DNA from: a virus | Virus record (IMG/VR): IMGVR_UViG_3300029684_000017 | Span: 1 to 41,905 of that record | DNA: 41,905 nt | Direction: 5' to 3' (one strand) | Program-made: the position numbers and the translations under genes | In this document: piece by piece, positions 4,259 through 41,905 of the stretch | Layout of the letters: each line of letters opens with the position of its first letter | How positions within the stretch are numbered: the stretch's first letter is position 1 | Notes under the pieces: generated by a model | Told to the model about the DNA's origin: nothing | Databases searched by the model: none | What the model saw: the letters and a program-made list of their open reading frames with translations, nothing else

Positions 4259-4280
4259 AATTACAAGAACTTATCACTTG

Positions 4281-4351
4281 TTGAGCTACCCGGATTCGAA
4301 CCGGAAGCGCCACCTCCAAAGGGTGATGTGTTACCGTTACACCATAGCTCA
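4281..4351 (-). tRNA. tRNA-Gln (anticodon UUG)
   Basis: Cloverleaf folded by hand. Acceptor TGAGCTA/TAGCTCA, anticodon stem TCACC/GGTGG, loop CTTTGGA, T-arm TCCGG-TTCGAAT-CCGGG. No encoded CCA. Confidence 0.85.
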
Positions 4352-4499
4352 ATAAATGCCGGTCTTTCCCGGCTGCCAGATGCTTTCGCATAACCTGTCC
4401 GATAGAGTCAAGCGTCTGTTCCGCTTTGCCATTGCCGCGCAATCGGCAATAATCCCTTGCGCTATCGTCGCTCTACTTGCATCACCAACAAAGGGGTTG

Positions 4500-4584
4500 C
4501 GGAGGGTGAGAGATTCGAACTCCCGAAGCGTTGCCGCTCGCCGGATTAGTAAGCCGGAGCCTTCAACCACTCGGCCAACCCTCC
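4500..4584 (-). tRNA. Type-II (long variable arm) tRNA, Ser-like, apparent anticodon ACU with a mismatched 31-39 pair
   Basis: GGAGGGT acceptor, GCC/GGC D-stem, anticodon arm CCGGC-TTACTAA-TCCGG, variable stem GAGCG/CGCTT, T-arm GGGAG-TTCGAAT-CTCTC, discriminator G. Confidence 0.7.
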
Positions 4585-4650: not shown

Positions 4651-4911
4651 TCACGCCTTTTCTTTGACGAAACGCCCGCCGGCGCCGCGTTTACGCTGAT
4701 ACTTTTGCAATTCGGCCTCAGCGGCATAACGAATGTTCCGTTCTTCGGCGCACTTTTTCAGGAGGTCATTGCGGTCTTTTTCACCCGCGGTGAAACTCCG
4801 GCGAATGTCCGCATTCACGCGCTCGAGCCGTTCGATCTCCGCGCGGTATCGCTTCCGCGGAGTGAAGTCCATGCCCAGAAATTTCCGGGCCTTGAATGTC
4901 TCGGTTCTCAT
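4651..4911 (-). CDS. Hypothetical basic coiled-coil protein (86 aa)
   Basis: ORF with an ATGA overlap to the upstream gene. Confidence 0.65.
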   Translation of the reverse strand: MRTETFKARKFLGMDFTPRKRYRAEIERLERVNADIRRSFTAGEKDRNDLLKKCAEERNIRYAAEAELQKYQRKRGAGGRFVKEKA

Positions 4912-5156
4912 ATTTGTGCAATTTCAGGGTTAACGACCATATGATACTCTTTGTAGCGGACGATCCGCCCTCTGTCGGCATCGTGGCTGTAACACCAATC
5001 GCCGACGATGATGTAGCCTTTACGCCGGAGCCGCGTGACGATCTTTCGCAGCTCTGTTGTGCCGAATTTGTTCATCGCTTTCCACACCGTCAGCGTGCCG
5101 CCTCTGATGAAGTAGGCCAAGATGCGGGCCTGGGGCTTTCTTGAATCTTTCTTCAT
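4908..5156 (-). CDS. Winged-helix DNA-binding-like protein (82 aa)
   Basis: ARILAYFIRGGTLTVWKAMNKFGTTELRKIVTRLRRKGYII has a wHTH-like pattern. Confidence 0.6.
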   Translation of the reverse strand: MKKDSRKPQARILAYFIRGGTLTVWKAMNKFGTTELRKIVTRLRRKGYIIVGDWCYSHDADRGRIVRYKEYHMVVNPEIAQI

Positions 5157-5320
5157 AGCCTTGAAATTTTAAGGTTATTGCGCCCTGACACCATCGAAGG
5201 CCAGGCACACCGATCACGTGCATCGGCGCCATCAGGGCAAGGGTGCGGGCTTTGCGCGGTGTGATAACCACTAACTTAAATTGCAAAATGGACAGAAAGA
5301 ACGTGTGCACTCAGCCCGCA

Positions 5321-5615
5321 TTGGAGCCCGTGAAGTCGATCAAAACCGCACGGGCATAATTTGCGTTCTATTTATCCCGGTGGTCCTCGCCGCTCATATC
5401 ATCGCAGCCTTGGAGCCCGTGCCGGTCTTTCGCGCATTTCGGCTATTTGCTTACTCGCGGCCGCATCTTCTCAATGGCGGCACATAGTGCAGTTACGTTG
5501 CAGGCGTCGGTCGGAATGGTGCGGCTCCGACTGCCGGATCGCTTTCTGCCTTGCGGCTGGGGTTATTGCCAGCGATCAAACCCCTAACCCTTGCGGGCTG
5601 CTATTGGCTCCCGTG
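5321..5615. repeat. Three copies of a 12-nt motif TTGG(A/C)(G/T)CCCGTG in an ORF-free stretch
   Basis: ttggagcccgtg at 5321-5332 and 5410-5421; ttggctcccgtg at 5604-5615. Confidence 0.6.
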
Positions 5616-5622
5616 TCGCCGG

Positions 5623-5862
5623 TCAAAGCGGCGCGGGAAAATCATATCGTCCTTTTGTCCAATACCATTTTGTCAAGGCTTGTAGATTACGGGCGATTCC
5701 TAACTTGTCGTAGATGATCTGCAAGTGGTTAGCGACACATTGATACGGTCAACATTGATACGTCACGCATACGTGCTCGGCGGTTTCTCGCGCCGTCATG
5801 CAGTCGTCTGAAAGGCATTCTACAATGCGCATTTCGCAGCGGGTCAGTTGTTCGTGTTTCAT
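5623..5862 (-). pseudogene. GerE/LuxR-type HTH regulator gene interrupted by an in-frame TGA inside a 15-bp tandem duplication
   Basis: Codon-by-codon translation gives MKHEQLTRCEMRIVECLSDDCMTARETAEHVCVTYQC*PYQCVANHLQIIYDKLGIARNLQALTKWYWTKGRYDFPAPL*. TGA at 5751-5749. Duplicated units at 5737-5751 and 5752-5765. Confidence 0.7.
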
Positions 5863-6509: not shown

Positions 6510-6561
6510 GGCGTTTCAGTTTTTTTGTATATTTTTACATTTCAATACCCGGCGGTCTTCG

Positions 6562-6617
6562 TACCTTTGCTGTGTATCACAATGCAAATATGTGCATATT
6601 ATTTTAATTATGCAAAT
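6562..6617 (+). promoter_or_regulatory. Rightward promoter (-7 box TACCTTTG) with downstream ATGCAAAT operator-like boxes
   Basis: tacctttg at 6562-6569. cacaatgcaaatat at 6578-6591, overlapping the inverted repeat aatatg-tg-catatt. Second atgcaaat at 6610-6617. Confidence 0.55.
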
Positions 6618-7721: not shown

Positions 7722-7974
7722 TGAGCAACATTCGGATATTTGCACTCACGCAAAAACCGAGAATGTATATTTTACGTTGGATTTTCACCCACGGTATTTG
7801 ATTTTGGGCGTCAACGAAAATGTTGGCATCGACAATCCGTGTCTCTTTGTGTATTAACGATTTCATGTTCAAAGAACGTTGTAAACCCTATTGGCGCACT
7901 ATTTCGCCCTTTCGGATTTGGTTATTCCAATCTTTTTTATATATCTTTACATTGTTTTGCGGCGTAGAACTCTT

Positions 7975-8080
7975 TACCTTTGCGGTGTAGTTCAATTCCA
8001 CAATGCAAATATAGATTAAAAATCTAATACACCACACAAAAATAGATCTAAAATATAATAATAAATATTTATGCAATTTG
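7975..8080 (+). promoter_or_regulatory. Second promoter (-7 box TACCTTTG) with the same downstream operator-like box
   Basis: tacctttg at 7975-7982. cacaatgcaaatat at 7999-8012, a 14/14 match to 6578-6591. atgcaatttg at 8071-8080. Confidence 0.55.
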
Positions 8081-9066: not shown

Positions 9067-9516
9067 ATGAAGAAACTTTTACTATTTTCCGTATGTATGG
9101 CTATTTTATGTTCATGTAACTCCAATCAGAAGAAAGCCGAACGATTGGTAAAACAATACATGAAAGAAAATCTCGACGACTATAAAAGTTACGAGCCTAT
9201 TAAATTTTCAGAACTTGAACCGATCCTGATAAAAGAACAAGCGGAAAAAGTTCTTAAAGTAGCAATAGATCATAAAAAAAGCCGCGAAGATTATATATAT
9301 TACTTGGATTCAACCCAATTAAAGGAACAGTTAGCATACATCGCTTCAATAGATACTGATATAGATTCGTTAAAAAGGGTTTGCGATTCAGCATCCGTTA
9401 ATGACATTCACGGTTGGTGCTTTGAGCATTCATACCGTTCTGCCAATAAAATAGGAGCAATGGAGAAAAAAACAGAAATATTTTATTTCAATAGAGATAT
9501 TACCGAGATTCAATAA
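9067..9516 (+). CDS. Lipoprotein (149 aa)
   Basis: Signal peptide MKKLLLFSVCMAILCSC with a lipobox Cys followed by NSNQKK. Confidence 0.8.
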   Translation: MKKLLLFSVCMAILCSCNSNQKKAERLVKQYMKENLDDYKSYEPIKFSELEPILIKEQAEKVLKVAIDHKKSREDYIYYLDSTQLKEQLAYIASIDTDIDSLKRVCDSASVNDIHGWCFEHSYRSANKIGAMEKKTEIFYFNRDITEIQ

Positions 9517-9534: not shown

Positions 9535-9561
9535 CGCCCCGACTTCTGCCGGGGCGTTTTT
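9535..9561 (+). terminator. Rho-independent terminator
   Basis: Stem cgccccg / cggggcg, 8-nt loop, ttttt. Confidence 0.75.
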
Positions 9562-9641: not shown

Positions 9642-10280
9642 ATGCTTGAAACTATTTGGAGCTGGATCATGGAAAACTACCCCGGCATATTCGCAATGCT
9701 GGTGGTTGCATATGCTGTATGGCATATAAGAGGATGGTATTCCAAATTCGACGCAAGGGTGAAAGCATGTGAAGCCCACGAACCAGCCATTGAGGAGATA
9801 AAAAACGACGTGAAAACCCTACAAAAGGATATTGACAGCGTTAAAATGGATGTGAAGAGTATCAAAGATTATTTGGTAACAAAAGATCAAAAAGCAATAA
9901 ACGTTTTAGCGATGAAAAATAGCCCGATGGTTCTCAATGAGAACGGAAAGCAGATATATGAAATTATAGTAGGTGATAAATTCCTCGCTGATAATAAGAC
10001 GCTTTTATTCGAGCGTATCGATAGTAAAAAACCTCGCACTCCGCTGGATGTAGAGATTGCAGCCAAAGAGGTGCTTATTGACCTCTTGAGTAGCCCCATA
10101 TTTGATGGAATTAAAAACATAGTATACAATTATCCATCGATTCAAATTAAACAAGAGGGCAAAGACATCGATTATGCTATTTCCATATCAGATGTATGCT
10201 TCGTGTTAAGTATTCCTTTGCGCGATATGTATCTGGAAGCGCACCCGGAAATAAACACGAAGGATAACGATAACAAATAG
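9642..10280 (+). CDS. Membrane-anchored coiled-coil protein with an uncharacterised C-terminal domain (212 aa)
   Basis: TM segment YPGIFAMLVVAYAVWHI, heptad-like IEEIKNDVKTLQKDIDSVKMDVKSIKDYL, and a globular C-terminal half. Confidence 0.7.
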   Translation: MLETIWSWIMENYPGIFAMLVVAYAVWHIRGWYSKFDARVKACEAHEPAIEEIKNDVKTLQKDIDSVKMDVKSIKDYLVTKDQKAINVLAMKNSPMVLNENGKQIYEIIVGDKFLADNKTLLFERIDSKKPRTPLDVEIAAKEVLIDLLSSPIFDGIKNIVYNYPSIQIKQEGKDIDYAISISDVCFVLSIPLRDMYLEAHPEINTKDNDNK

Positions 10281-10303: not shown

Positions 10304-10331
10304 CCCCGGGCCACGAGCTCGGGGATTTTTT
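10304..10331 (+). terminator. Probable terminator
   Basis: ccccg...cgggg stem followed by atttttt. Confidence 0.55.
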
Positions 10332-10454
10332 GTACATATTGAACAATAAATCGCCTTGAAGCAGGCTTTTCCCCTAAGAAAAACACAAACTTTTTGAACA
10401 ATTCACCCCATCAATCCCCTGGCCACAAAAAAAATCTGAAAATTTTTCGTCGAA

Positions 10455-10518
10455 CTCTTGCATAATGTGCCGAGAGTTGGCTCCTTTGCATCGTAAGGCT
10501 ATGAAGATATAGCCCACG
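10455..10518 (+). promoter_or_regulatory. Late-type promoter-like element, copy A (TTG, 20 nt, CTCCTTTG, plus a conserved initial transcribed region)
   Basis: About 60 nt align with 24724-24788 (17/18 identical in tcttgcaNaatgtgccga) and partly with 29853-29915. Confidence 0.55.
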
Positions 10519-10602
10519 GACAAGACGAGCGGTAGCATCCGCGAATCTTAACGACGAAAGGACACGTTGTAGGACACACGTTGTTGGTAGTAGTTCTTGG
10601 AA

Positions 10603-10640
10603 GGGTCTGTGGCTATTCATCCGGCCGCAGACCCTTTTTT
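10603..10640 (+). terminator. Strong intrinsic terminator ending 2 nt before the terS start codon
   Basis: 11-bp stem gggtctgtggc / gccgcagaccc (one G-U pair), 10-nt loop, tttttt. ATG at 10643. Confidence 0.8.
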
Positions 10641-10642
10641 CT

Positions 10643-11152
10643 ATGGCAAAGAGAACGGAAGGAATCAAGAAGACAACCGGCAACAAGCCCACCCGCAAAG
10701 TGGGCCGCCCTCGTGCATATACCCCCGAAGCTCTTGAAGCCAAGTTCGAAGAGTATGTCGAATGGGTGAAAGCGAATCCGCGATACAGCAACAAGGTATT
10801 GGGCGACGGCTCGATAATTCCCGTACCCTATGAACGCCCGCTGACATTGTCCAGCTTCGCCGTATTCGCCGGGATAATCCCTGATACATTCAGAGAATAC
10901 GAGAAACTCGACGAGTTTTTCGGCGTGTGTGCGCGCGTGCGCGCGCGAATCGAATCCGATCAGTTGGAGGGTGCTATGTGTGAGCAGTACAACCCGACGA
11001 TTGCGTCGCGTGTTCTTCATCTTGCCGACCGCCAGGATGTGACAACAAACGGCAAGGCGATAACGGTTGCAACACAGCCTATTCCCGTGGTCCTCGATCC
11101 CGAAGCTGCTAAGATCATCCAGTCCATAGGCAAAATGACAGTAAAGGAATGA
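10643..11152 (+). CDS. terS: Terminase small subunit
   Basis: GRPRAYTPEALEAKFEEYVEWVKANP...PLTLSSFAVFAGI..DTFREY pattern of Terminase_2-type small subunits. Immediately precedes terL. Confidence 0.8.
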   Translation: MAKRTEGIKKTTGNKPTRKVGRPRAYTPEALEAKFEEYVEWVKANPRYSNKVLGDGSIIPVPYERPLTLSSFAVFAGIIPDTFREYEKLDEFFGVCARVRARIESDQLEGAMCEQYNPTIASRVLHLADRQDVTTNGKAITVATQPIPVVLDPEAAKIIQSIGKMTVKE

Positions 11153-22302: not shown

Positions 22303-22332
22303 TTATTAACCATTTAACCCATATGAAGAGAT

Positions 22333-24723
22333 ATGGCACAGAATGAAATACATAAGATCATAACGATAGAGTTCAAAAATTCGGATTTAATCAAAGGATG
22401 GGAGGCCGCCTCGGCGGCTATTGACACCGCAAAAGTCAAACTACAAGAGTTTAAGAAAGCAGGTGATTCCGAAGGTGTTGCCAAGCAAACCCAACTTATA
22501 AAGGCGTTGCGGACCGAGATGTCGGCCTACACCCGGGAGATTCAGGCAAATATCAAATCGGAAATCGCACAAGAGGGGTCCATAGACCAACTCAATGCTA
22601 AAATTACCGCACTTACGGCGCAATACAAGGCGATGAGCGGGGAAGAACGGAAAGCGGCGAAAGGGAGGGAACTCAGTAGCAAAATCCACGATATGCAGAC
22701 CGAAGTCAATGAGGCTAATGCCGCATTATTGAACTTTCGGAATAATGTCGGGAACTATGCGAGCGCGGCTAAAGGTTTTACCCCGCTTACGTTCCAAGTA
22801 CAGCAACTCGCCCGAGAAATGCCATCACTTACGATGTCATTTCAACAGTTCTTTCTGGCGATTTCAAACAACCTCCCGATGTTTGCGGACGAATTGACCC
22901 GAGCAAGGATGGCCAACAAAGCGCTGCGAGCGGAGGGCAAGCCGACAGTTTCGGTGTTCAAACAAGTGCTTTCGGCTATTGGTTCCTGGCAAACGGCATT
23001 GGTCGTGGGTATCACATTGCTGACGGCCTACGGGAAAGAGATTGGGGCGTGGGTGAAAGGTCTGTTTACGGCCAAAGAAGCGGCGCTCTCTATGGCCGAG
23101 GCACAAGATAAGGTGAATGACGCTTTGAAGAAAGACGGGTACGGCATCGGTGAACAAATCGCCAAAGTGAAAGAATTGCAAATGCAATGGAGGGCTTTAG
23201 GGGACGATCTAAAGGCGCGAAAGCAGTTCATTGTCGATAATAAAGACGCATTCGACGATCTCGGGGTCAAGGTAACGAATGTAAATGATGCAGAGAACCT
23301 TCTTGTAACAAATACGGGCGATTTTATAAATGCTCTAAGCATGCGAGCGCGGGCGGCTGCGGGGATGAAGCTGGCCGCCGAAGCCTATGAAAAGGCACTG
23401 ATCAAGCAGCAAGAGATCGAGGAGGAAATAAAAAAAGGGTACACGACGACAATATCAAGCGCCGGAGGCTCTTTTGGAGGTGGATTTACTAAAGTAAACC
23501 GAGCTTATACAAAGGCCGAAGAAGAGGAATTAAAGGCCCCCGTCCGTGCTTTAGAAGCCCAAGCCGAAGCGTACCTAAATGTATCCGTTGAAAGCCAAAA
23601 TACGGCATCTGAAATACTCAAAAATGCAGGTATTGAGGAGGCCGCCAATGATAAAGTAAATGAGAAAATAAAGAAAGGCATAACACTTGCGGAGCAGCGA
23701 GCCCAAGCAGTAAAAGCCGCGCGGGAATCCATCGTAAAAGACATTACGGCAATCGGTAATGCTTTGGATAAAGAATTGGCCGATGCTTTCAAGGATGGGA
23801 ACAATGATATTACCAAAGGGCTCGAATCGCAATTAGAAGAGCAGGCGCGAAAGTATCAAAATAGGCTTCTTGAAGCCACATTGTCGGGCGGAAGTTTAGG
23901 GACGGCAAAAGAAACTATTGCAATAGCCAAAGAGCAACTGTCGCAGTTGGACGATATAGCCAGCAATGAAGAGCTTGTCAACCGGTTAGGCTGGGACGAT
24001 GTGGAATTGCAGCGGCAACGGCTTGACCTCCGTATGCAAATAGCGAACGCCGAACAAAGCATCGCCCGGGAGCAGGACCGCACAGCGCAAGAAGCGGCAC
24101 GGCAGACGGCGCAAACTCTCAGCGGATTATCAGGCATGACAGGGGCCTTTTCTGCAATGTTTGAAGCACTGGGCGGAGAGGGCGAACGTTATGCCGAGTT
24201 TTCGAAAGCATTGGCCATATTCGAGGTTGCGTTACAGCAGGCACAAGCTATTGCGGGCGCTGTCGCCAATGCTGCCAAGTATTCCATTCCGTGGTTGCTT
24301 CCCGTTCAGATTGCAAGCAGCGTCGCCGCGGTAATTGCAGCCATTGCGCAAGCTACACAAGTCACAGATTCGGCGCAAACGCCTAAATACGCCTCCGGCG
24401 GCCTTGTCACGGGCCCGGGAACCGGAACTTCGGACAGCATTCCCGCAATGTTATCCAACGGCGAAGCTGTGATGACGGCCCAGGCTGTCAACGACTGGGG
24501 CGCAATGCTATCGGCCATGAACGTGGCAAGCGGCGGAAACGCCATCCAAGTATCGAATCTTCCCCAGCGCAACGACGGCATGAAGGGGATGGAGCGCATG
24601 ATGGAACGGGCCCTGATGAATATGCCGGCGCCCATTGTTTCGGTGGTTGACATCAACAAAGGTCAGAAGCGGGTCAAGGTTCAAAACAGCCTCGGAAAAT
24701 TAGGACGGAAAAAATACGAATAA
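22333..24723 (+). CDS. Tape-measure-like protein
   Basis: 796 aa, long Ala/Gln/Glu-rich coiled coil, hydrophobic segments. C-terminal ASGGLVTGPGTGTSDSIPAMLSNGEAVM motif common in tape-measure proteins. Confidence 0.75.
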   Translation: MAQNEIHKIITIEFKNSDLIKGWEAASAAIDTAKVKLQEFKKAGDSEGVAKQTQLIKALRTEMSAYTREIQANIKSEIAQEGSIDQLNAKITALTAQYKAMSGEERKAAKGRELSSKIHDMQTEVNEANAALLNFRNNVGNYASAAKGFTPLTFQVQQLAREMPSLTMSFQQFFLAISNNLPMFADELTRARMANKALRAEGKPTVSVFKQVLSAIGSWQTALVVGITLLTAYGKEIGAWVKGLFTAKEAALSMAEAQDKVNDALKKDGYGIGEQIAKVKELQMQWRALGDDLKARKQFIVDNKDAFDDLGVKVTNVNDAENLLVTNTGDFINALSMRARAAAGMKLAAEAYEKALIKQQEIEEEIKKGYTTTISSAGGSFGGGFTKVNRAYTKAEEEELKAPVRALEAQAEAYLNVSVESQNTASEILKNAGIEEAANDKVNEKIKKGITLAEQRAQAVKAARESIVKDITAIGNALDKELADAFKDGNNDITKGLESQLEEQARKYQNRLLEATLSGGSLGTAKETIAIAKEQLSQLDDIASNEELVNRLGWDDVELQRQRLDLRMQIANAEQSIAREQDRTAQEAARQTAQTLSGLSGMTGAFSAMFEALGGEGERYAEFSKALAIFEVALQQAQAIAGAVANAAKYSIPWLLPVQIASSVAAVIAAIAQATQVTDSAQTPKYASGGLVTGPGTGTSDSIPAMLSNGEAVMTAQAVNDWGAMLSAMNVASGGNAIQVSNLPQRNDGMKGMERMMERALMNMPAPIVSVVDINKGQKRVKVQNSLGKLGRKKYE

Positions 24724-24788
24724 TTCTTGCACAATGTGCCGAAGGTTAGCACCTTTGACGCGAACGCTTATGAGGATATAAGCCGCGG
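24724..24788 (+). promoter_or_regulatory. Late-type promoter-like element, copy B (TTG, 20 nt, CACCTTTG)
   Basis: Aligned by eye to 10455-10518. Confidence 0.5.
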
Positions 24789-24884
24789 AATCATGTACGA
24801 AACGACACATACATATCGCCACCCTTTCGTGGCCGCATCTGCCATAAGCGCGAAGTGCTTTGTCTAACTTAACACATCAAACTA

Positions 24885-29545: not shown

Positions 29546-29857
29546 ATGCGTAAAACAGAGCTTTTTGCACAAATACTTAAAACCGTTGCAAATGAAACGG
29601 AATTGACGCCCGAGCAAATCCTTTCGTGTTGTCGCACGGCCGAAACGGTCGATGCGCGTTATATGCTCGTCTACCTGTTAAAGCGCGAAGGCATATATAT
29701 CGGTGAAATAGCCCGCATGATGAACTTCTCCCGCCGGGGTGTCGAAAAGATGCTGTCGCAGTTCGAAGATCGCCGCATTCAAAGCGGACGTATTTTCGAA
29801 TTGGCGTTCGAACGTATTGCGAACAAAGTGCGCATAACCTCCGAATCATCCCATTGA
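29546..29857 (+). CDS. DnaA-domain-IV-like HTH protein (103 aa)
   Basis: LTPEQILSCCRTAETVDARYMLVYLLKREGIYIGEIARMMNFSRRGVEKML resembles the DnaA C-terminal DNA-binding domain pattern. Confidence 0.55.
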   Translation: MRKTELFAQILKTVANETELTPEQILSCCRTAETVDARYMLVYLLKREGIYIGEIARMMNFSRRGVEKMLSQFEDRRIQSGRIFELAFERIANKVRITSESSH

Positions 29858-29915
29858 TCACCTTGCCGAACTGGGTCACCTTTGCATCGTAGCTACGGTA
29901 TGAAGGCTATCTCAA
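29853..29915 (+). promoter_or_regulatory. Late-type promoter-like element, copy C (TTG, 20 nt, CACCTTTG)
   Basis: cacctttgcatcgta matches copy A (ctcctttgcatcgta). Overlaps the 3-prime end of the preceding gene. Confidence 0.45.
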
Positions 29916-34335: not shown

Positions 34336-34800
34336 CTAAATATAATTATCCATTTCATTCATTTTGGCGATCAAGGCGTCGGCAAACCCTGCCGCCACGC
34401 TGACTGCACTGGATAGTCCGTATTCATGCTTGACATCCGAAGCGAGTATTCCCTGCATTGCCTGCCCGGCAAACACCCGCAGCCAGTACTCGCGGTCAGT
34501 TGTCAAGTTTTTCTTAACAACTGGATTTTCAACTGTCAAGTTTTCTTTGACACTTGGGGTGTACTCTCCCCTCTCCAGCTTCTCCAGATAGTCGTCGTCG
34601 CGCATCATCAATTTACGGGAGCCCCTCGGTGAAAGATGCCCGTCTTTACTACAAGGTGTTATCCGAGACCTACGGCCGATATAGATAAGTATTGGATACA
34701 AGCGGCTTCGCCCATTAGTGATTATAATCTCAACAGGGCACCCGTACTGCGTACACACCGCCGCTCCTCGTTTGGCGGCCTCCAAATCGAAATCCTTCAT
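34336..34800 (-). CDS. Hypothetical protein (154 aa)
   Basis: ORF. Confidence 0.7.
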   Translation of the reverse strand: MKDFDLEAAKRGAAVCTQYGCPVEIIITNGRSRLYPILIYIGRRSRITPCSKDGHLSPRGSRKLMMRDDDYLEKLERGEYTPSVKENLTVENPVVKKNLTTDREYWLRVFAGQAMQGILASDVKHEYGLSSAVSVAAGFADALIAKMNEMDNYI

Positions 34801-34869
34801 AATATATTTAATTTATAAAATTATAAGGTTAAGTCGAGCCAAAGACGTAAAGGTTATGGGAATGAGTTA

Positions 34870-35070
34870 TTGACCACGTTGGAGAATATTGCTCGCGGGT
34901 TAGGTTGTGACTCATGTGTTTTATGGGTTGATAAGTCCGCATGGATGCATGATTGGTATAGACGCCGGGGATATGAAGATTATGCCGATTACGATGATCC
35001 GGTTTTTGTGTGGATGTGGAAACCGTTCACATTCTTAAATACAGCAATAGACTGTCCACTATGTCGATAG
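34870..35070 (+). pseudogene. Possible acetyltransferase (GNAT)-like C-terminal fragment without a proper start
   Basis: The track ORF begins at a TTG. LGCDSCVLWVDKSAWMHDWYRRRGY resembles a GNAT C-terminal motif. Opposite strand to all neighbours. Confidence 0.25.
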
Positions 35071-35127
35071 AGAACCGCCTTGCAGCACCTGTGCAGAGTT
35101 ACGTGTAATTTTAAGTCGAGCATAATG

Positions 35128-36003
35128 TCACTGAATTGACCTCCACTGATAATTAATCGGATCGCGCTTCAAAATGTCCATCCATTGGGCAACATTACGG
35201 CAGTCGATAAGATCGACGCTCCCGTCCCGCTTGTCCCGCACAAGGCGTGGCAGATAGCAGAATATCTCTTCTATGGCGTCAGCGGTAGCACGACAGTCTG
35301 AGTCAGCCTGAATGTCGTGCCATTGTGGCATAGAAGAAACTCGATACTCCAAATCGGCAATCTCCTCAGCTTGCTTATCTAATGCCCGCTCGTATGCAGC
35401 TACTGTCTGCGGAGCAATATCTTTTGCCTTGCCGATGTTGCGCCAATAGCGGCGAATCCAATTCCACATTGCATAGTAGAACTTATCCCGCATATCCCGC
35501 CGGTGCAAATCAGCCTGCGTGTCGTACTTGGCCTTGTGAAGGCATGGAGCGGACTTGATGCAGCTGAATGTGCCCGAATCGGTGATATACATCAGCCCTG
35601 CGAACTTCGGGCATTCAGCCTCGGAGATGATTCCCTCCGGACAGACATACCAAAAGTAATTAGGCTTCTGCATCGGTTCCTTGCCGCACTCTATACCGTA
35701 TTTGTCGTAGCTGTGGTATTTTGCGACCGTCATATCCTCTCCTCCCAGCAATCGCATTTTCTCCTGCTTGTGGGCAGACTCATTCAGAAAATCTGAATGG
35801 CTGATCTTGATCTCACACTCGTACACATATCCGGCTTTTGAAATTGCCAAGTAATCAGACTCCCAAGCATAGAAAAATAAACCAATCATCTCAAATGCAG
35901 GCTGCGTCAAGATTGGATGATTCTCATATAAGGCCCGCTGAATACTATCCTCCGTGTATTTCTGCTTCTGTGCGACTACACCCCGTCGACCTCTAATTCC
36001 CAT
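35128..36003 (-). CDS. PD-(D/E)XK nuclease-like (MmcB-like) protein with a C-terminal extension
   Basis: ESDYLAISKAGYVYECEIKISHSDF (D...ExK) and PNYFWYVCPEG motifs. Confidence 0.55.
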   Translation of the reverse strand: MGIRGRRGVVAQKQKYTEDSIQRALYENHPILTQPAFEMIGLFFYAWESDYLAISKAGYVYECEIKISHSDFLNESAHKQEKMRLLGGEDMTVAKYHSYDKYGIECGKEPMQKPNYFWYVCPEGIISEAECPKFAGLMYITDSGTFSCIKSAPCLHKAKYDTQADLHRRDMRDKFYYAMWNWIRRYWRNIGKAKDIAPQTVAAYERALDKQAEEIADLEYRVSSMPQWHDIQADSDCRATADAIEEIFCYLPRLVRDKRDGSVDLIDCRNVAQWMDILKRDPINYQWRSIQ

Positions 36004-36012
36004 ACAATCAAT

Positions 36013-36636
36013 TTATTTTACCAACTCAAATTCATAAGCTGTAACAAATGGATTAGATTCCCAAGTCCCAGAACCAGAAATCATATCAGTCAATGAGGCA
36101 AAAGCATCACGAGGTGTACCACCAAGCCATTCACGTAAAGTATTCGTGATACCGAGGCTTACATAAAACATACGGGCTTTATGATCCCACTCAAGGCCCT
36201 CCTTGATGCAATCTTCGTCCGATATATCCTGCAACCGCTCGCACTTGATTCCGGTGATGCGGATTCGGTGTGGCATAAGCTCTGCTTTGGTGAACATCTT
36301 GTTATTCCACCCTGCAAGGTCCTGCACGATTTCGAGGGGTATTTTATGCGCTTTGGCCACATAAAGCAGAAATGTATCGACATCCGGATGCCCGGCGGCA
36401 ATCGTCGAATATCTCTGTGCCACAGCCACGACTTCGCCAACCTTATAGCGGGTATACTTCGAGTGCCTGACATCAATAAAATCCCCGTATTCGTTTTCAT
36501 AAACCAAGGTGTCGCCCCTCGTGTCCCACGTAAGTCCGAAGAACTCATCAGGAATCAACCGTCGCGTCATGGTCTTTCGACCCTCGATAACCGCCTGCGT
36601 CAATCCATAGCGATCGTTGAAATTGATCTTCTGCAT
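36013..36636 (-). CDS. ASCH-domain-like protein
   Basis: GRKTMTRRLIP, ERLQDISDEDCIKEG and WESNPFVTAYEFELV, the pattern of phage ASCH/PUA-like proteins. Confidence 0.6.
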   Translation of the reverse strand: MQKINFNDRYGLTQAVIEGRKTMTRRLIPDEFFGLTWDTRGDTLVYENEYGDFIDVRHSKYTRYKVGEVVAVAQRYSTIAAGHPDVDTFLLYVAKAHKIPLEIVQDLAGWNNKMFTKAELMPHRIRITGIKCERLQDISDEDCIKEGLEWDHKARMFYVSLGITNTLREWLGGTPRDAFASLTDMISGSGTWESNPFVTAYEFELVK

Positions 36637-36638
36637 AG

Positions 36639-37049
36639 TTATTTCTCCTTAAAGTGTTCGACAATCTCCTCGGCCGTAGCCTTGCGCGGCGTCTTGCCAT
36701 ACAACATAATCCATCCAACGATATTAGCCTCCTTGACTATGCACTTCTCAAAATGGCCCAACTCATCAATGAACCACTGCTCCAGGTCGTTCTCGTCGTT
36801 CATAGCCGCCAGTGCTTTGAATAGCTCGATGTTTTCGCCACAATCGATAAGACCATAAGATACAAGCCCAACGGACGTATTACATGATACCACATCGGCA
36901 CAACCATCATCCAGACCGGCGGCTACAATCGAATTAGTCTTATCAATTCGATATCTGCCCGCATATTCTATGGCAAACATCCATCTAAGCAACTTGGCTC
37001 GCTCCTCCACATCCTCGACGCGGACAAAGCACGGGGTGGTGAATTTCAT
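36639..37049 (-). CDS. Hypothetical protein (136 aa)
   Basis: ORF. Confidence 0.7.
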   Translation of the reverse strand: MKFTTPCFVRVEDVEERAKLLRWMFAIEYAGRYRIDKTNSIVAAGLDDGCADVVSCNTSVGLVSYGLIDCGENIELFKALAAMNDENDLEQWFIDELGHFEKCIVKEANIVGWIMLYGKTPRKATAEEIVEHFKEK

Positions 37050-37050
37050 T

Positions 37051-37290
37051 CTATTCTTGTCGTTTTAGATTGTTTGTTCTGTTGATCTCTGCGGCAATAG
37101 CCTTGACGGTCTTGCCACGGCCTCGGCCATTGCGGCGCACACGTTCTATTTTCTGGAATCGCCGAATAACTCCCGTTGGTTGAAGGTATTCATCAAGACC
37201 TGAATAGGAAACAATTTCATTAAGCCATTCCTTTACGTCGAATCCATCCGGCGGTCCCTGCCAAATGCCGTCAATCAAAAAGTTTTTCAT
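37051..37290 (-). CDS. Hypothetical protein (79 aa)
   Basis: ORF with ATGA overlap. Confidence 0.65.
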   Translation of the reverse strand: MKNFLIDGIWQGPPDGFDVKEWLNEIVSYSGLDEYLQPTGVIRRFQKIERVRRNGRGRGKTVKAIAAEINRTNNLKRQE

Positions 37291-37562
37291 TCCTTGCTAA
37301 GTTTTTGGATAAATCGGACTTTCGCTCCGCATCTGATATTACCATCAGCCCCAAACGAACACCCTTTGGGGCAATTTGCGGCGCAAAACGCCTCGATTGC
37401 TTTCGTCTGCATCCGCTCCTCGGCCTCCTGCTCGGCAATTTCGATAGCGGTAGACACATCCCATCTTGACACGACCAACTCGCGCCCTCCGAATCTTTCA
37501 GCATACTCTTGTGCCGTACACGTGGCATATGTAATGTATTCCTTTGCTTTTTCGCTTTTCAT
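37287..37562 (-). CDS. Hypothetical Cys-rich protein (91 aa)
   Basis: ORF. Confidence 0.65.
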   Translation of the reverse strand: MKSEKAKEYITYATCTAQEYAERFGGRELVVSRWDVSTAIEIAEQEAEERMQTKAIEAFCAANCPKGCSFGADGNIRCGAKVRFIQKLSKE

Positions 37563-37587
37563 GGCTCAATCGTTTTCATCGTTATCG

Positions 37588-37725
37588 TCATCGGGATAGC
37601 TCACATCCCATATACCCGCAGAACGTCCGAATATATTCCGATTTACCACAAACCGAACATATTCTCATTTCTTCGCATATTTGTGCAGCTTCCCGCCGCA
37701 GTCGTTTCAGTAGGCGTGTTTTCAT
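37588..37725 (-). CDS. Hypothetical small Cys-rich protein (45 aa)
   Basis: Hand-translated MKTRLLKRLRREAAQICEEMRICSVCGKSEYIRTFCGYMGCELSR. ATGA overlap with the upstream gene. Confidence 0.45.
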   Translation of the reverse strand: MKTRLLKRLRREAAQICEEMRICSVCGKSEYIRTFCGYMGCELSR

Positions 37726-38045
37726 TTCAATTCAAATTGCATTTGTTTATTGCGAAAACCTGCTCCCATACAAGCCAAACCGATGTCATTGTTCGAGAAT
37801 GTCGTTATTGGATTCGCCGTGCAAGGGAGCGACTGAAATAGGCACCAATCCCCATCGCAATGTTCACAATTAAGGCAATGTTCCTCGGGGGTACCCCACC
37901 ACTCAATGCTTTCGGGATAACCGCTATCGCGGCTCAACTGTTTCCATGTTTCCCAGCGTTCACGGCGTAGTTTATCCGACATGTCGGCTTTATGCTCTCC
38001 GAACAATTCGGCCCATCGAATACCTAATGTTACCGGTTTCATCAT
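37722..38045 (-). CDS. Hypothetical Cys-rich protein (107 aa)
   Basis: ORF containing CLNCEHCDGDWC. Confidence 0.65.
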   Translation of the reverse strand: MMKPVTLGIRWAELFGEHKADMSDKLRRERWETWKQLSRDSGYPESIEWWGTPEEHCLNCEHCDGDWCLFQSLPCTANPITTFSNNDIGLACMGAGFRNKQMQFELK

Positions 38046-38431
38046 TTAATCAACTTTGCATGTAAACCATCAATCTCATACTCACGGTCGCATTTATTGC
38101 AGATGATTGGCCCATCCTCATAAACCGGGTCTTCCAATTCTTCCCAAACGTCGGTATAATTAACACCCCTCGCCTGAATCTTATTTCCGCAAATGCACGT
38201 GAACTCACAGACGACTTGATACTTAATATCTTCCACATGAATGTATACATCCAACTGGCCATCATCGGCGTCCTTTTCCCGTTGTGTGCATTCGCGATCG
38301 ATCTTCTGCAAAAGCGCGATTTGTTCAGGATTACCGATTTCAGGTTTTACCTCTACATCCCCACGCATAAACTTACCATCCACGAGGCGCAACGGCTGCC
38401 CAATGCTTGTTACATGATATTTCATCTTCAT
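38042..38431 (-). CDS. Hypothetical zinc-ribbon-like protein (129 aa)
   Basis: CICGN ... CNKCD cysteine pairs. Confidence 0.65.
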   Translation of the reverse strand: MKMKYHVTSIGQPLRLVDGKFMRGDVEVKPEIGNPEQIALLQKIDRECTQREKDADDGQLDVYIHVEDIKYQVVCEFTCICGNKIQARGVNYTDVWEELEDPVYEDGPIICNKCDREYEIDGLHAKLIK

Positions 38432-38438
38432 TATTATT

Positions 38439-39317
38439 TTATTCGCATAGTCCGTAATAACTCATGCAACTCGTCGCCGTGTCGTCGTCGAACAAACTAC
38501 CTGTGGCATTCTGCCATTCGATATAGCGCACGACATCGTAAATGAATGCGTGCTTTTCGCTGCTGTTGATCGCACGCTGGGGAATCGTACCATCGACAAA
38601 GAAAGGTGATTGCAATTCTTTCTCTAAAACTGCGATTTGGTCGATTCGTTCGGGCGACTGCCGCGCAATGTTCAGTATGTCCCGATGCACACTCATTACG
38701 CACGGCCAGCACCCGACGCGCTTGTAGCCCATGCGGTAGAGGGGATTCGGCTCCAGCCCGGCAGCGAGGATATAATCGATGACCTGCTGCGCCGACCAGT
38801 CGAACACGGGGCGCAGCAAATCGTCGGCATACTTTTTCCGGAAAGTACAGACATCCTTTCCCCGGTAGGTGTGGTATTTCGGCTTTCCTGCTTTGTTGTA
38901 ACCATACGGCTCAAAGTAGTATTTGAAGTAGGTGCATTGCTTACTCATAGCCGCCCGTCGTGCAGATTCCGCAGCCCGGATGCCCTGAATCATCAACAAG
39001 TTGTCTTGCACCTCGTCCAGCACATAGTCAATCGTAGGCATGGTTTTTAATTCACCCGTGCATGAACGGAACCGCGGAGAGGGCCATTTCCCCTGCTTCT
39101 TTGCAAGAGCGACCATCCCGTCGTACTTCTTCGACTTCAATGTTACCAGGTCGAGGTGCAACTTGTCGGCTATCCGGTGGATGTACTCATACGTCAGCGG
39201 ATGTTCCCAGCCCGTATCGCAGAATACGGTCGTGAAATTCTTGGTGATATGCTCCCGGGTCCACAACAGCGCCGCAAGGCTGTCTTTTCCGCCCGAAAAG
39301 GTGACGATGACTTTCAT
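38439..39317 (-). CDS. PAPS-reductase-family PP-loop protein
   Basis: MKVIVTFSGGKDSLAAL (SGGKDS PP-loop) and C-terminal KRVGCWPC. Start at the internal ATG 39317, 10 nt below the upstream stop. Confidence 0.85.
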   Translation of the reverse strand: MKVIVTFSGGKDSLAALLWTREHITKNFTTVFCDTGWEHPLTYEYIHRIADKLHLDLVTLKSKKYDGMVALAKKQGKWPSPRFRSCTGELKTMPTIDYVLDEVQDNLLMIQGIRAAESARRAAMSKQCTYFKYYFEPYGYNKAGKPKYHTYRGKDVCTFRKKYADDLLRPVFDWSAQQVIDYILAAGLEPNPLYRMGYKRVGCWPCVMSVHRDILNIARQSPERIDQIAVLEKELQSPFFVDGTIPQRAINSSEKHAFIYDVVRYIEWQNATGSLFDDDTATSCMSYYGLCE

Positions 39318-39327
39318 AGCTTTCGTG

Positions 39328-40320
39328 TTAATACTCCACAGCCGCCCGGCGGTCGATGAAGAAGTGGATACCCGGAGCACACTCGTTCCAACGGTTATCG
39401 TCAAAATCGGAAACCTCGATGGTAGCGCCGACCGCATACACGAATTTTTCGTCATGATCCGAACAAACCGTCTCGATGTCGGCTTTGGTTCCATCGACAT
39501 TCTGAATCTCCGCCACATAGGCTTTGTCACAGCGACATTTTTCGCCTCCGGCAGAGCTGCGGCGGGCATCCTCCGGGATTTGCAACTTCACGACATATCC
39601 CGAAGCCTTTTTCCATCCGATAAAACTGCCGTCGGTAGGACAAGCCATATAGCTACCTCGGGCTCCGCGCAGGTCGGCTACGCGCAGGTCGGCTCCGCGC
39701 AGGTTGGCTCCGTACAGGTTGGCTTCGTACAGGTTGGCTCCGCGCAGGTCGGCTCCGCGCAGGTTGGCTCCGCGCAGGTTGGCTCCGTACAGGTTGGCTC
39801 CGTACAGGTCGGCTCCGCGCAGGTTGGCTCCGCGCAGGTTGGCTCCGTACAGGTTGGCTTCGTACAGGTTGGCTTCGTACAGGTTGGCTCCGCGCAGGTC
39901 GGCTCCGCGCAGGTTGGCTCCGTACAGGTTGGCTTCGTACAGGTTGGCTACGCGCAGGTCGGCTCCGCGCAGGTTGGCTCCGCGCAGGTTGGCTCCGTAC
40001 AGGTTGGCTCCGCGCAGGTCGGCTCCGCGCAGGTTGGCTCCGCGCAGGTTGGCTCCGTACAGGTTGGCTTCGTACAGGTTGGCTCCGCGCAGGTCGGCTA
40101 CGCGCAGGTCGGCTCCGCGCAGGTCGGCTCCGCGCAGGTTGGCTCCGCGCAGGTTGGCTCCGTACAGGTCGGCTTCGTACAGGTTGGCTCCGCGCAGGTC
40201 GGCGTCGCCTTTCAATGCCTCCGCTACCGTTTTGGCGAGCGTATTATCAACGCTCGAATACTCGAAAATGATAGAACCTGTCCAGCGGTTCTTAATCGAT
40301 ATTTTAATCTCTTTGCTCAT
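39328..40320 (-). CDS. Pentapeptide-repeat protein: 36 consecutive A(D/N)L(R/Y)(G/E/V) units plus a C-terminal globular domain ending CAPGIHFFIDRRAAVEY
   Basis: Direct reading of the 330-aa ORF. Confidence 0.9.
   Translation of the reverse strand: MSKEIKISIKNRWTGSIIFEYSSVDNTLAKTVAEALKGDADLRGANLYEADLYGANLRGANLRGADLRGADLRVADLRGANLYEANLYGANLRGANLRGADLRGANLYGANLRGANLRGADLRVANLYEANLYGANLRGADLRGANLYEANLYEANLYGANLRGANLRGADLYGANLYGANLRGANLRGADLRGANLYEANLYGANLRGADLRVADLRGARGSYMACPTDGSFIGWKKASGYVVKLQIPEDARRSSAGGEKCRCDKAYVAEIQNVDGTKADIETVCSDHDEKFVYAVGATIEVSDFDDNRWNECAPGIHFFIDRRAAVEY
39661..40200. repeat. Coding tandem array of 36 x 15 nt (GGCTNCGNNCAGGTY), with 11 of 15 positions invariant
   Basis: Counted directly. 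Only positions 5, 8-9 and 15 of the unit vary. Confidence 0.95.
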
Positions 40321-40341
40321 AGTTGTTGGTAGTTGTGATTG

Positions 40342-40755
40342 TTATCTTCCGAAAACGATACAGGCGGCATCCCTCGAGTGTTCTGAGGTCCTACCTTGCC
40401 ACTTTGTAAAGACCCTGAATTGCGCCGCCGATAGCTTCGTGCGGTTGTTCTTCGGGGGCACCATCCGATATTGCAGCCCCTGCTCCATACACCAGTCCTC
40501 CCAGATGCGGCTGTCGCGCTTCACGGAGCCCGCGCCCTGCAATTTCTCCCGCCCTGAGTGTCCGAACCACTTGCGCTGCCGGGCATCCTCGATGAACAAC
40601 CGGATGTTGTCTTTTCCGAGGATGTCCGCAAGCATCTTCACGCGCTCCATTGCCTGGGTGATGGTGTACGTGGAGACCTCGGCGAGATATTTAGAGTCTG
40701 AATGCCATACGGCGAAGCCTGTATGCACGCCCGTGTCAATGCCGATGTACGTCAT
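40342..40755 (-). CDS. RuvC-like Holliday-junction resolvase
   Basis: TYIGIDTGVHTGFAVW, LFIEDAR, GAGSVKRDSRIWE and SEHSRDAACIVFG motifs. Confidence 0.7.
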   Translation of the reverse strand: MTYIGIDTGVHTGFAVWHSDSKYLAEVSTYTITQAMERVKMLADILGKDNIRLFIEDARQRKWFGHSGREKLQGAGSVKRDSRIWEDWCMEQGLQYRMVPPKNNRTKLSAAQFRVFTKWQGRTSEHSRDAACIVFGR

Positions 40756-41249
40756 AGCTCGTCCGGGATATGATACCGTGCCTTGTCCACTTTGAGCACC
40801 CAGCTGGGTTTCTCGGCCCCATTGATGCGTATCGGAGCGTAATCGTCCGTGCTGCCGCCGTTCCGAGCTACTTCATTACACATCGCAGAATACGTCAGAA
40901 TCCGACATTTCACATCAATGCCCAGGATGTCGGCGATCGTCAGCCGTTTGTACGTAAACGTGTCCAGTACCCTGTTCAGGGCATATTCCAGCCGCTTCCC
41001 GCTCATCCCCGTCTTCCCGATACGCTCGGCAAGGATGGAGAAGAATTCGCTCGACATATCCGGGAAACATACGGACAGCTTATGCACCGCCGTGGCGATA
41101 TGTGCCGTCGATGCCGGAGGCCCGGCAAGTACGGATACCTCCTCACTCCCACTCTTGGCGAGTGTGAGCGCGAGAGATTCCTTCGGCGACAGCCCGAGCG
41201 AGTTCATCAGGGCTTGGGGGTTGATTCTTTGTACTTCGTCCATAGTCAT
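40752..41249 (-). CDS. Hypothetical replication-module protein (165 aa)
   Basis: ORF with ATGA overlap downstream. Its 5-prime end overlaps the replication gene by about 107 nt, so the start is uncertain. Confidence 0.55.
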   Translation of the reverse strand: MTMDEVQRINPQALMNSLGLSPKESLALTLAKSGSEEVSVLAGPPASTAHIATAVHKLSVCFPDMSSEFFSILAERIGKTGMSGKRLEYALNRVLDTFTYKRLTIADILGIDVKCRILTYSAMCNEVARNGGSTDDYAPIRINGAEKPSWVLKVDKARYHIPDEL

Positions 41250-41905
41250 TTGTCGTTTTCAGCGGGAATAACCCCGCCCAGTTATTTGCCATAGATTGTC
41301 GGATGATCTTACGGGCAATGTCCGGCTCCCCGTTTGAAAGTTCCCGCAATTTGGAATAACAAGCCTTTAATCCCTGCTGCCGATAGGTCTGTCCGCGCTC
41401 AGACTTGTAAGCAAGCCATTCCGCCATAACTGGCTGGAGCGAAGGTTCGACGAAGGATAAATCAGTCTCTTTTCTTTTGCCGCAACTTTTCTTTTTCTCT
41501 GGTCCGTTTTTTACGGATTCATCGTCAGAGTCCGGAGAGCCGATTTCCCCCTTAGGGGGATTATAGGGGGTACTACTATTCCTCTCCTTTTCCTCTCCTA
41601 TTATAGTCACTGATTGATCACTGATTGATCCATGATTGATCACTGATTGATCAGTGAATTTAGCTAAAATACTGTCTAATAGCTCCTTATTAATATTTAC
41701 ATCGTCCAAATTAGGTCGATTGATTATTTGGTGACGGGAGAAAGTAGGAAGATAGTAGAAACTCTCCGATTTGACGGAGAGAAGACTAATAAAACCGGTC
41801 TTCTCGAGCAGCCCTAACCACGCCTCCATCTGTTGAACCTGTATTCTGTCGTAAGGAAATATTTTTGATTTTAGCCAAACGGGATCGGCGATCACCACAC
41901 CTAAG
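41143..41905 (-). CDS. Replication initiator / replisome-organizer-like protein, C-terminal segment (N-terminus at 209-100 across the junction)
   Basis: See feature 1-209. Contains the internal iterons. Confidence 0.7.
   Translation of the reverse strand, partial: LGVVIADPVWLKSKIFPYDRIQVQQMEAWLGLLEKTGFISLLSVKSESFYYLPTFSRHQIINRPNLDDVNINKELLDSILAKFTDQSVINHGSISDQSVTIIGEEKERNSSTPYNPPKGEIGSPDSDDESVKNGPEKKKSCGKRKETDLSFVEPSLQPVMAEWLAYKSERGQTYRQQGLKACYSKLRELSNGEPDIARKIIRQSMANNWAGLFPLKTTNDYGRSTKNQPPSPDELARAVAEGISRAHTRQEWE
41608..41651. repeat. Four tandem 11-bp iterons (CACTGATTGAT; third copy CCATGATTGAT) inside the replication gene
   Basis: Read directly. Partial fifth copy 41652-41657. Degenerate gattgat at 41718-41724. 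AT-rich flank 41654-41745. Confidence 0.85.
41807..41905. repeat. Second copy of the 99-bp terminal direct repeat
   Basis: Identical to bases 1-99. Confidence 0.95.

Follow-up and report, generated by a model that had tools for sequence, protein, structure and literature searches.

The primary-sigma promoter of the Bacteroidota combines a TTTG element at -33 with a TAnnTTTG box at -7 (Ryan et al., 2020; PMC7366714), and P_BfP1E6, a promoter from a Bacteroides phage, carries UP elements (bioRxiv 10.1101/2025.03.18.644028). The element described here occurs three times, as copies A, B and C, in a 41,905-nt stretch of viral DNA (IMG/VR record IMGVR_UViG_3300029684_000017, positions 1 to 41,905; hereafter the window). 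With the canonical promoter and P_BfP1E6 it shares an upstream TTG, a downstream TTTG at the usual spacing and an A/T-rich upstream region. It differs from the canonical promoter in that the TA of the box is always replaced by C or G followed by A or T, in that an invariant spacer containing GTGCCGA is added, and in being found in phages only rather than host-wide.

The late control region of phage lambda consists of PR', qut and tR' and is served by the Q antiterminator. The element resembles it in placing a promoter ahead of the first late gene, in the conserved DNA between its promoter elements, and in the terminator found in the leader of copy A. It differs in that the window holds neither a Q homologue nor a pause element, in its three to four copies per genome, most of them without a terminator, and in a conserved RNA hairpin, of which Q systems have no need. 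Hairpins are part of the N/nut system of lambda, where boxA is joined to boxB with loops GAAGA or GAAAA, and of the put RNAs of HK022. In common with these the element has a promoter-proximal hairpin, a purine-rich conserved loop, an adjacent linear motif and a position upstream of a terminator. Unlike nut, which has a GNRA-like pentaloop, it has a GANGNN hexaloop at +3 and is associated with late rather than early operons, and no N-like protein was recognised among the ORFs of the window.

Late-operon activation is known from RinA, LtrC and ArpU, which act at the terS promoter in phages of Gram-positive bacteria, from Ogr of P2 and C of Mu, and from the MotA box of T4. In these systems, too, otherwise weak promoters of packaging or morphogenesis genes carry a phage-specific motif at or close to the -35 region, but no homologue of the activators was detected in the window, and the motif of the element lies in the spacer instead of upstream. 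Stem-loops at the 5' end stabilise transcripts in the T7 phi10 leader and the ompA 5' UTR. The hairpin of the element similarly lies 2–3 nt from the predicted 5' end of the late mRNAs; however, a stabiliser acting by structure alone would not call for the conservation seen in the loop and 3' flank of this hairpin. By analogy, the element appears to resemble phage late-promoter systems that set a phage-specific motif on a weakened host-type promoter, partly with a leader terminator, and it falls outside every named family for which membership could be tested.

Three Copies of the Core Element

A scan of the window for TTG-N7-TGCCGA-N7-CNCCTTTG returns three exact matches, all on the + strand, at 10458–10488 (copy A), 24727–24757 (copy B) and 29854–29884 (copy C), and no further matches even when up to two mismatches are allowed. 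Shuffled sequence gives an expectation of 0.04 matches, and none of 100 shuffles contains three. The three copies reported in a preliminary description of this DNA are thus real, and its account of their architecture, a TTG followed after exactly 20 nt by C(T/A)CCTTTG, is correct for all three, as is the agreement of copies A and B at 17 of 18 positions over tcttgcaNaatgtgccga. In copy A the TTG (10458–60) is followed by the spacer element GCATAATGTGCCGA, with TGCCGA at 10468–73, and by the -7-like box CTCCTTTG at 10481–88. Copy B consists of the TTG, GCACAATGTGCCGA and CACCTTTG, while copy C combines its TTG with TGCCGA at 29864–69 and CACCTTTG at 29877–84.

The locations given in that description also hold. 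Copy A precedes terS (GP3_package), terL and the portal and prohead protease genes; the ORFs upstream of it encode a TM protein, a lipoprotein and a CI-like HTH protein. The stop codon of a gene for a 796-aa coiled-coil, tape-measure-like protein immediately precedes copy B, with no terminator between them; downstream of the copy are the gene for a 192-aa protein and a block including the holin gene (located between copies B and C), again without an intervening terminator. The TTG of copy C overlaps the TGA stop of the 103-aa DnaA_C-like HTH gene at 29546–29857, and three further genes lie downstream. Few other terminator-like sites occur in the late region.

The remainder of the window is a temperate-phage early region encoding ERF, NinB, a resolvase, a replication initiator, CI/Cro-like HTH proteins, an integrase and an excisionase-like HTH protein. 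The leftward early operon seems to exit at the left end (1–651), with NinB and ERF, and to resume from the right end (34336–41905), with the replication initiator and resolvase, an arrangement suggestive of a complete or circularly permuted phage genome. Two phage tRNA genes on the - strand of this leftward region, at 4280–4351 and 4499–4584, specify tRNA-Gln (ttg) and a tRNA-Ser with the unusual anticodon act. Early genes at 38439–40320 (- strand) encode a PAPS-reductase-domain protein and a 330-aa pentapeptide-repeat protein with DUF5758, which may have host-takeover or counter-defence functions. Between the immunity region and the late promoter lie accessory genes for a lipoprotein (9067–9516) and a TM/coiled-coil protein (9642–10280), bracketed by intrinsic terminators at 9535–9556 and 10304–10324, the TM/coiled-coil gene having its own canonical promoter. 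A conserved non-coding region of about 330 nt (5295–5640, + strand) separates the wHTH gene from the next early genes; it is 86–90% identical in two related loci (L041 and L110) in which the flanking proteins are only about 50% identical. Several helices showing compensatory changes are predicted in this region, along with numerous G.U pairs possible on the + strand alone; it has no match in Rfam and may be a phage ncRNA or an origin-like element.

Anatomy of the Promoter-Like DNA

The DNA anatomy was compared with one representative from each of 18 lineages. Upstream of the TTG, an A-rich tract, a T-rich tract and an AAA follow one another at fixed distances across the 18 lineages; in copy A this UP-element-like region spans 10426–10457 (+ strand). 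If transcription starts at the conserved A described below, the register of these tracts is presumably that of the Escherichia coli UP-element consensus. Since the search pattern itself contained the TTG, TGCCGA and CCTTTG of the core, their constancy from locus to locus is in part built in. The same applies to the TTG being exactly 20 nt upstream of the box in every copy, a distance that matches the -33 spacing of about 19–21 nt. Positions outside the search pattern are also conserved: position 7 is A in all 18 lineages, and CA-AAYG is kept at positions 4–10 in the A and B types. The spacer motif reads TTGnnnAnnnTGCCGA in all types and, in types A and B, TTGCAYAAYGTGCCGA. Downstream, an A lies 7 nt after the TTTG in 15 of 18 lineages, including those with leaders that lack a hairpin, and this conserved A is the likely +1, which predicts transcription starts at 10495 in copy A (+ strand), 24764 in copy B and 29891 in copy C.

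No copy matches the canonical -7 box TAnnTTTG, since C or G replaces the T, and copy A additionally has T in place of the A. Among the matches listed, more than 100 loci have C at the position 2 nt before CCTTTG and 12 loci, from two lineages, have G; none has T or A there. A control scan that required TA found 39 unrelated environmental matches, about the chance level for 16 fixed bases. Conversely, the canonical promoters of the window, which belong to its early and accessory genes and have TACCTTTG boxes at 6562, 7975 and 9585, all lack TGCCGA; the preliminary description was right that there are three such promoters. In a more distant phage (L131), the promoter at the position of copy C has the canonical TAGTTTTG and is likewise without TGCCGA. 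Taken together, TGCCGA and TA look mutually exclusive, and this exclusion is the strongest argument for a separate promoter class.

Other readings of the core DNA were considered and rejected. An ECF-type promoter (GAAC-N16-CGTA) would have a -10 element that is not conserved across lineages, whereas CCTTTG is, and a sigma-54 promoter on the reverse strand would have both the GG-N8-GC spacing and the orientation wrong. RNA pairing inside the core (GUGC with GCAC) is not compensated where position -13 is T. A partial match on the minus strand, TGCACTATGTGCCG at 5478–5491, has no box after it and is therefore a chance match.

Two of the canonical promoters (6521–6599 and 7933–8012) are duplicates of one another: each has a T-rich stretch upstream, then TACCTTTG and, just downstream of it, the same 14-mer, CACAATGCAAATAT (6578–6591 and 7999–8012). 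This 14-mer, which has CACAATG in common with the spacer of the late element, is probably an operator of the CI/Cro-type switch.

The Leader Hairpin

The preliminary description had read the sequence downstream of the box as a promoter region conserved in all three copies. In copies A and B this region is instead an RNA hairpin with a covarying stem (10497–10514 and 24766–24783); copy C does not share it, and its resemblance to the A and B region (TATGAAG) is not kept in related phages. The hairpin of copy A, GGCTAT-GAAGAT-ATAGCC followed by CACGGA (10497–10520, + strand), scores 44.7 bits against a covariance model and has a folding energy of -7.4 kcal/mol, and that of copy B, GCTTAT-GAGGAT-ATAAGC followed by CGCGGA (24766–24789, + strand), scores 41 bits. 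In A, B and most relatives it comprises a 6-bp stem, a GANGNN hexaloop and then [C/A][A/G]CGGA, and the stem begins about 8 nt after the TTTG, at +3 from the predicted start.

Across 18 distinct leaders, 96.3% of the stem cells are paired, against 20–45% in slid controls, and the covariation score of 0.611 compares with 0.287 in shuffles, none of 500 shuffles scoring as high. Three to four of the six stem pairs change on both sides, one of them appearing as CG, GC, UA and GU. Twelve cells hold G.U pairs that would be C.A mismatches on the opposite strand, and the structure therefore belongs to the transcript. When this covariance model, built on the hairpin and its flank, was run on the loci, strong matches were found only beside a core. 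The hairpins are energetically weak, at -5 to -7 kcal/mol. Rfam 15 covariance models at the gathering threshold find only two tRNAs in the window, and at a permissive threshold give no match at E ≤ 10 around copies A and B.

The hairpin is not a constant companion of the core. The sequence from the predicted start of copy C onwards does not fold significantly (-2.4 kcal/mol, z = 0.14), and some relatives of this copy carry a different hairpin (CATTG...CAATG) that starts at the box. Most relatives ahead of long operons have the hairpin; it is missing from some terS leaders (L073), from the copies before tRNA genes and from those before single antirepressor genes. A hairpin of the same type also occurs within the late operon without a promoter, CCATAT-GAAGAG-ATATGG followed by CACAGA (22319–22342, + strand; 12.7 bits, E = 0.16; z = -4.1). 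The start codon of the 796-aa tape-measure-like gene (22333) lies within its 3' arm, and this hairpin is conserved in relatives whose tape-measure-like protein is only 34–39% identical.

Two further features of the leader were not retained. An outer helix (CGU with ACG) around the hairpin is paired in 64% of cases and shows no covariation. The hairpins of A and B contain a three-codon mini-ORF (AUG-ARG-AUA-stop), as ATG AAG ATA TAG at 10501–10512 and ATG AGG ATA TAA at 24770–24781. It is probably a by-product of the stem sequence, because it is not conserved in relatives with GTG in the stem, where the GUG variants run for 13–20 codons.

In light of its covariation, the leader hairpin is likely to be a functional RNA element. 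By comparison with known leaders, it may serve in 5'-end protection, being 2 nt from the predicted end, or as a protein-binding site for terminator read-through, and the conservation of its loop and 3' flank suggests specific recognition.

The terS Leader and its Terminator

The leader of copy A ends in an intrinsic terminator (10603–10642, + strand; -27.7 kcal/mol, z = -6.0) whose stem of about 16 bp is formed by GGGTCTGTGGC and GGCCGCAGACCC and followed by T6, and which ends within about 2 nt of the terS ATG at 10643. With so strong a terminator just before terS, full late expression from copy A would need read-through. Homologous leader terminators with compensatory differences are present in four other lineages (L045; L028/L030; L021/L044; L019), in one of which the terminator precedes head genes and not terS.

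Between hairpin and terminator, the leader of copy A also contains a motif, GACGAAAGGACA (10553–10564, + strand), that directly precedes the terS start codon in relatives without a terminator. In these (L002, L014, L112 and L120) the leader runs from the hairpin through CACGGA and GACGAAAGGACA straight to the start codon, which indicates that core, hairpin and terminator are, as judged from this sequence comparison, three separable modules. The leader terminator is likewise absent for copies B and C and for many terS copies.

Distribution Among Phages and Host

The preliminary description had named conservation in related phages as a point to be checked, and an exact-pattern scan of IMG/VR finds the core at no fewer than 119 loci. 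About 100 of them, in gut viral contigs, clearly carry the same element, and the remainder are GC-rich or coding chance matches; matches within coding sequence (L012, L016, L020, L039, L043 and others) are at chance level. Among the matches listed are about 33 distinct leader variants of the A/B type and several C types, and many element-bearing contigs hold two to four copies each. On contig 3300045988_160893 the four copies lie ahead of terS, a Bro-N antirepressor gene, scaffold/capsid genes and a tail gene, respectively, and in L005/L116 the element directly precedes a tRNA gene. Copies are always co-oriented with, and directly upstream of, gene blocks, often just after the terminator of the preceding unit. 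The C-type copies overlap the stop codon of a homologue of the 29546–29857 gene in every case (21 loci among the matches listed). The proposal of a distinct late promoter class agrees with this conservation and common orientation and with the consistent lack of TA; the element is not confined to late structural genes, though, and in relatives also precedes tRNA and Bro-N antirepressor genes.

Among 185,579 species represented by one genome each, the strict A/B core is found in a single genome, that of Alistipes putredinis DSM 17216, where it sits ahead of terS in a prophage at about 152–160 kb of NZ_DS499577.1. The phage host is thus probably Alistipes, and the motif is phage-specific and not a host-wide promoter type. 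The late region has no megablast match among GenBank phages, and no description of the element was found in the literature searched, which covered Bacteroides phage promoters, TAnnTTTG/PM2 and late genes of Alistipes prophages.

The Search for a Regulator

Searches of every ORF in the window against Pfam and PHROGs recover no Q, N, RinA/ArpU, sigma-2 or NusG-like protein, and no Q-family protein is found by these searches just upstream of copy A. A repeat of the kind that causes sigma-dependent pausing is also lacking, there being no TAnnTTTG or CCTTTG within +1 to +30 of any copy. None of the candidate regulators suggested earlier (2696–2974, 4908–5156 and 29546–29857) could be linked to the site, and PDB sequence searches with these three HTH proteins were uninformative. 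The wHTH protein at 4908–5156 (HTH_39) is the most widely conserved candidate, present in four lineages at 44–100% identity, and its database search returns close relatives only. The DnaA_C-like HTH gene at 29546–29857 always adjoins copy C, but it lies within the late region. The small HTH protein at 2696–2974 has a weak sigma70_r4_2-like match that falls below the Pfam cut-off.

A split sigma factor formed by the latter and the conserved 141-aa early protein adjacent to it at 2274–2699 was considered and discarded: the AlphaFold model of the 141-aa protein (pLDDT 79) is alpha+beta, and a Foldseek search with it gives no sigma-like match and no PDB match past E = 0.1. An Arg-rich 86-aa ORF at 4651–4911, which matches no N family, is a lead only. 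The CI-like repressor falls to 25% identity among phages with an identical spacer motif. As a separate observation, several lineages (L110, L112, L005, L006 and L030) that lack the accessory genes of the window encode a small protein of about 80–108 aa (MK.TDLS.IM..AW..Y...) immediately ahead of the element.

Interpretation

The element has, very probably, promoter function, given its geometry, its orientation, its context and the tRNA case. We lean, with some reserve, towards the reading that it represents a distinct class of factor-dependent late promoter with a structured leader, belonging to temperate phages of the gut Alistipes type. That a dedicated factor is needed seems on balance the better-founded assumption, because TA is strictly avoided, because the spacer is invariant although the CI-like repressor diverges to 25%, and because copy B must be silent in lysogens, as it drives the holin block without a terminator.

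In such a scheme, host RNA polymerase would be positioned by the UP-like A/T tract, the -35/-33-like TTG and the TTTG half of the Bacteroidota -7 box. The TA half being replaced by C or G followed by A or T, the invariant spacer motif would be read by the dedicated factor, most likely a phage-encoded activator or a sigma-like or appropriating protein. The promoters would be silent in the lysogen and fire together late, with transcription beginning at the conserved A, 7 nt after the TTTG (10495, 24764 and 29891). In copies A and B and most long-operon relatives, the RNA would fold at +3 into the GANGNN hairpin, followed by CACGGA; this hairpin would be a second, separable module on the transcript, acting in 5'-end protection or as a protein-binding site. 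The transcript from copy A would then meet the strong terminator before terS, and read-through would be required for full late expression. A counterpoint is that a promoter equipped with an UP-like tract, TTG and TTTG might need nothing beyond host polymerase to be strong; P_BfP1E6, a different promoter from a Bacteroides phage, is active in the absence of phage proteins (bioRxiv 10.1101/2025.03.18.644028).

The main rival resembles lambda PR' with Q or N/nut: the promoter would be constitutive or need only the host, and control would come from processive antitermination, with a factor loading at the spacer (like a Q-binding element) and/or at the nascent hairpin and CACGGA (as in nut or put), reading through the terminator and along the late operons. 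Copy A fits this scheme well, its promoter being followed by a leader of about 110 nt, then by a strong terminator directly against the terS ATG and by an operon of 14 kb, and so do the presence of a homologous leader terminator in five lineages, the conserved loop and 3' flank with their hint of specific recognition, the association of hairpins with long operons and not with tRNA or single-gene antirepressor copies, and the promoter-less hairpin at 22319–22342 within the late operon. The scheme does not fit copies B and C or the many terS copies without a leader terminator (L002, L014, L112, L120), and an off state of copy B in lysogens would still be needed, as it drives the holin block. Moreover, the initially transcribed region has no -7-like repeat for a sigma-dependent pause, the ORFs of the window yield no Q, N or NusG-like protein in Pfam and PHROGs, and the late region offers few further terminator-like sites. 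This rival is unlikely as a general account of the element.

A repressor could instead control intrinsically strong promoters, with the spacer as the operator of a conserved phage or host repressor and late expression following from derepression. A repressor bound to the motif, which lies between -33 and -7, would stand in the way of polymerase, and the UP-like tract suggests high intrinsic strength; the model is also favoured by the 11-bp near-palindrome GCACAATGTGC in the A/B-type spacer, a candidate dimer site. The palindrome is not maintained, however, since Y6 and Y9 vary independently and the C types lack it; the motif stays identical while the CI-like repressor diverges to 25% identity; and derepression gives no reason for the strict avoidance of TA, so that the model is decidedly doubtful. 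More improbable by far is that the element is no promoter at all but a conserved junction, used in recombination or module exchange, or a processing site in read-through transcripts. The same cassette of 60–90 nt does join non-homologous modules (different terS families, scaffold, tail and tRNA genes), and no terminator separates copy B from the gene upstream. Nevertheless, the copies keep a strict orientation and a fixed TTG-N20-box geometry, they have an UP-like tract and a conserved A at +1, and they are placed just after terminators and directly ahead of a tRNA gene, all of which fits a promoter.

Beyond the preferred reading of a factor-dependent promoter class with a separable leader, a bolder proposal would make the cassette the cis component of a new system of promoter-coupled antitermination or transcript licensing in Bacteroidota phages, with a factor of a new family. 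This is a speculative idea with a small chance of being right. The factor would recognise the GTGCCGA spacer as DNA and then the nascent GANGNN hairpin with CACGGA, so that polymerase or transcript would receive its mark at every late promoter and a second time at the internal hairpin ahead of the tape-measure gene. Polymerase would in consequence read through the leader terminator, and late expression would be coordinated.

Significance

To our knowledge, late-gene control in temperate phages of gut Bacteroidales is essentially uncharted, and Alistipes has almost no genetic tools. A 31-nt core that bears a signature not of the host type and occurs two to four times per genome gives a concrete target for finding the late regulator and a way into the activation of virion and lysis genes in these common phages, and the motif can be used to mark late operons in metagenomic phage contigs. 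The element could also serve as a tightly off, inducible promoter part. Its covarying leader hairpin adds an RNA motif without an Rfam family, and the arrangement of promoter, hairpin and terminator before terS offers a small system for separating activation from antitermination in the Bacteroidota. The interest would be higher if a new antitermination mechanism were found to use the hairpin and the spacer as its cis sites.
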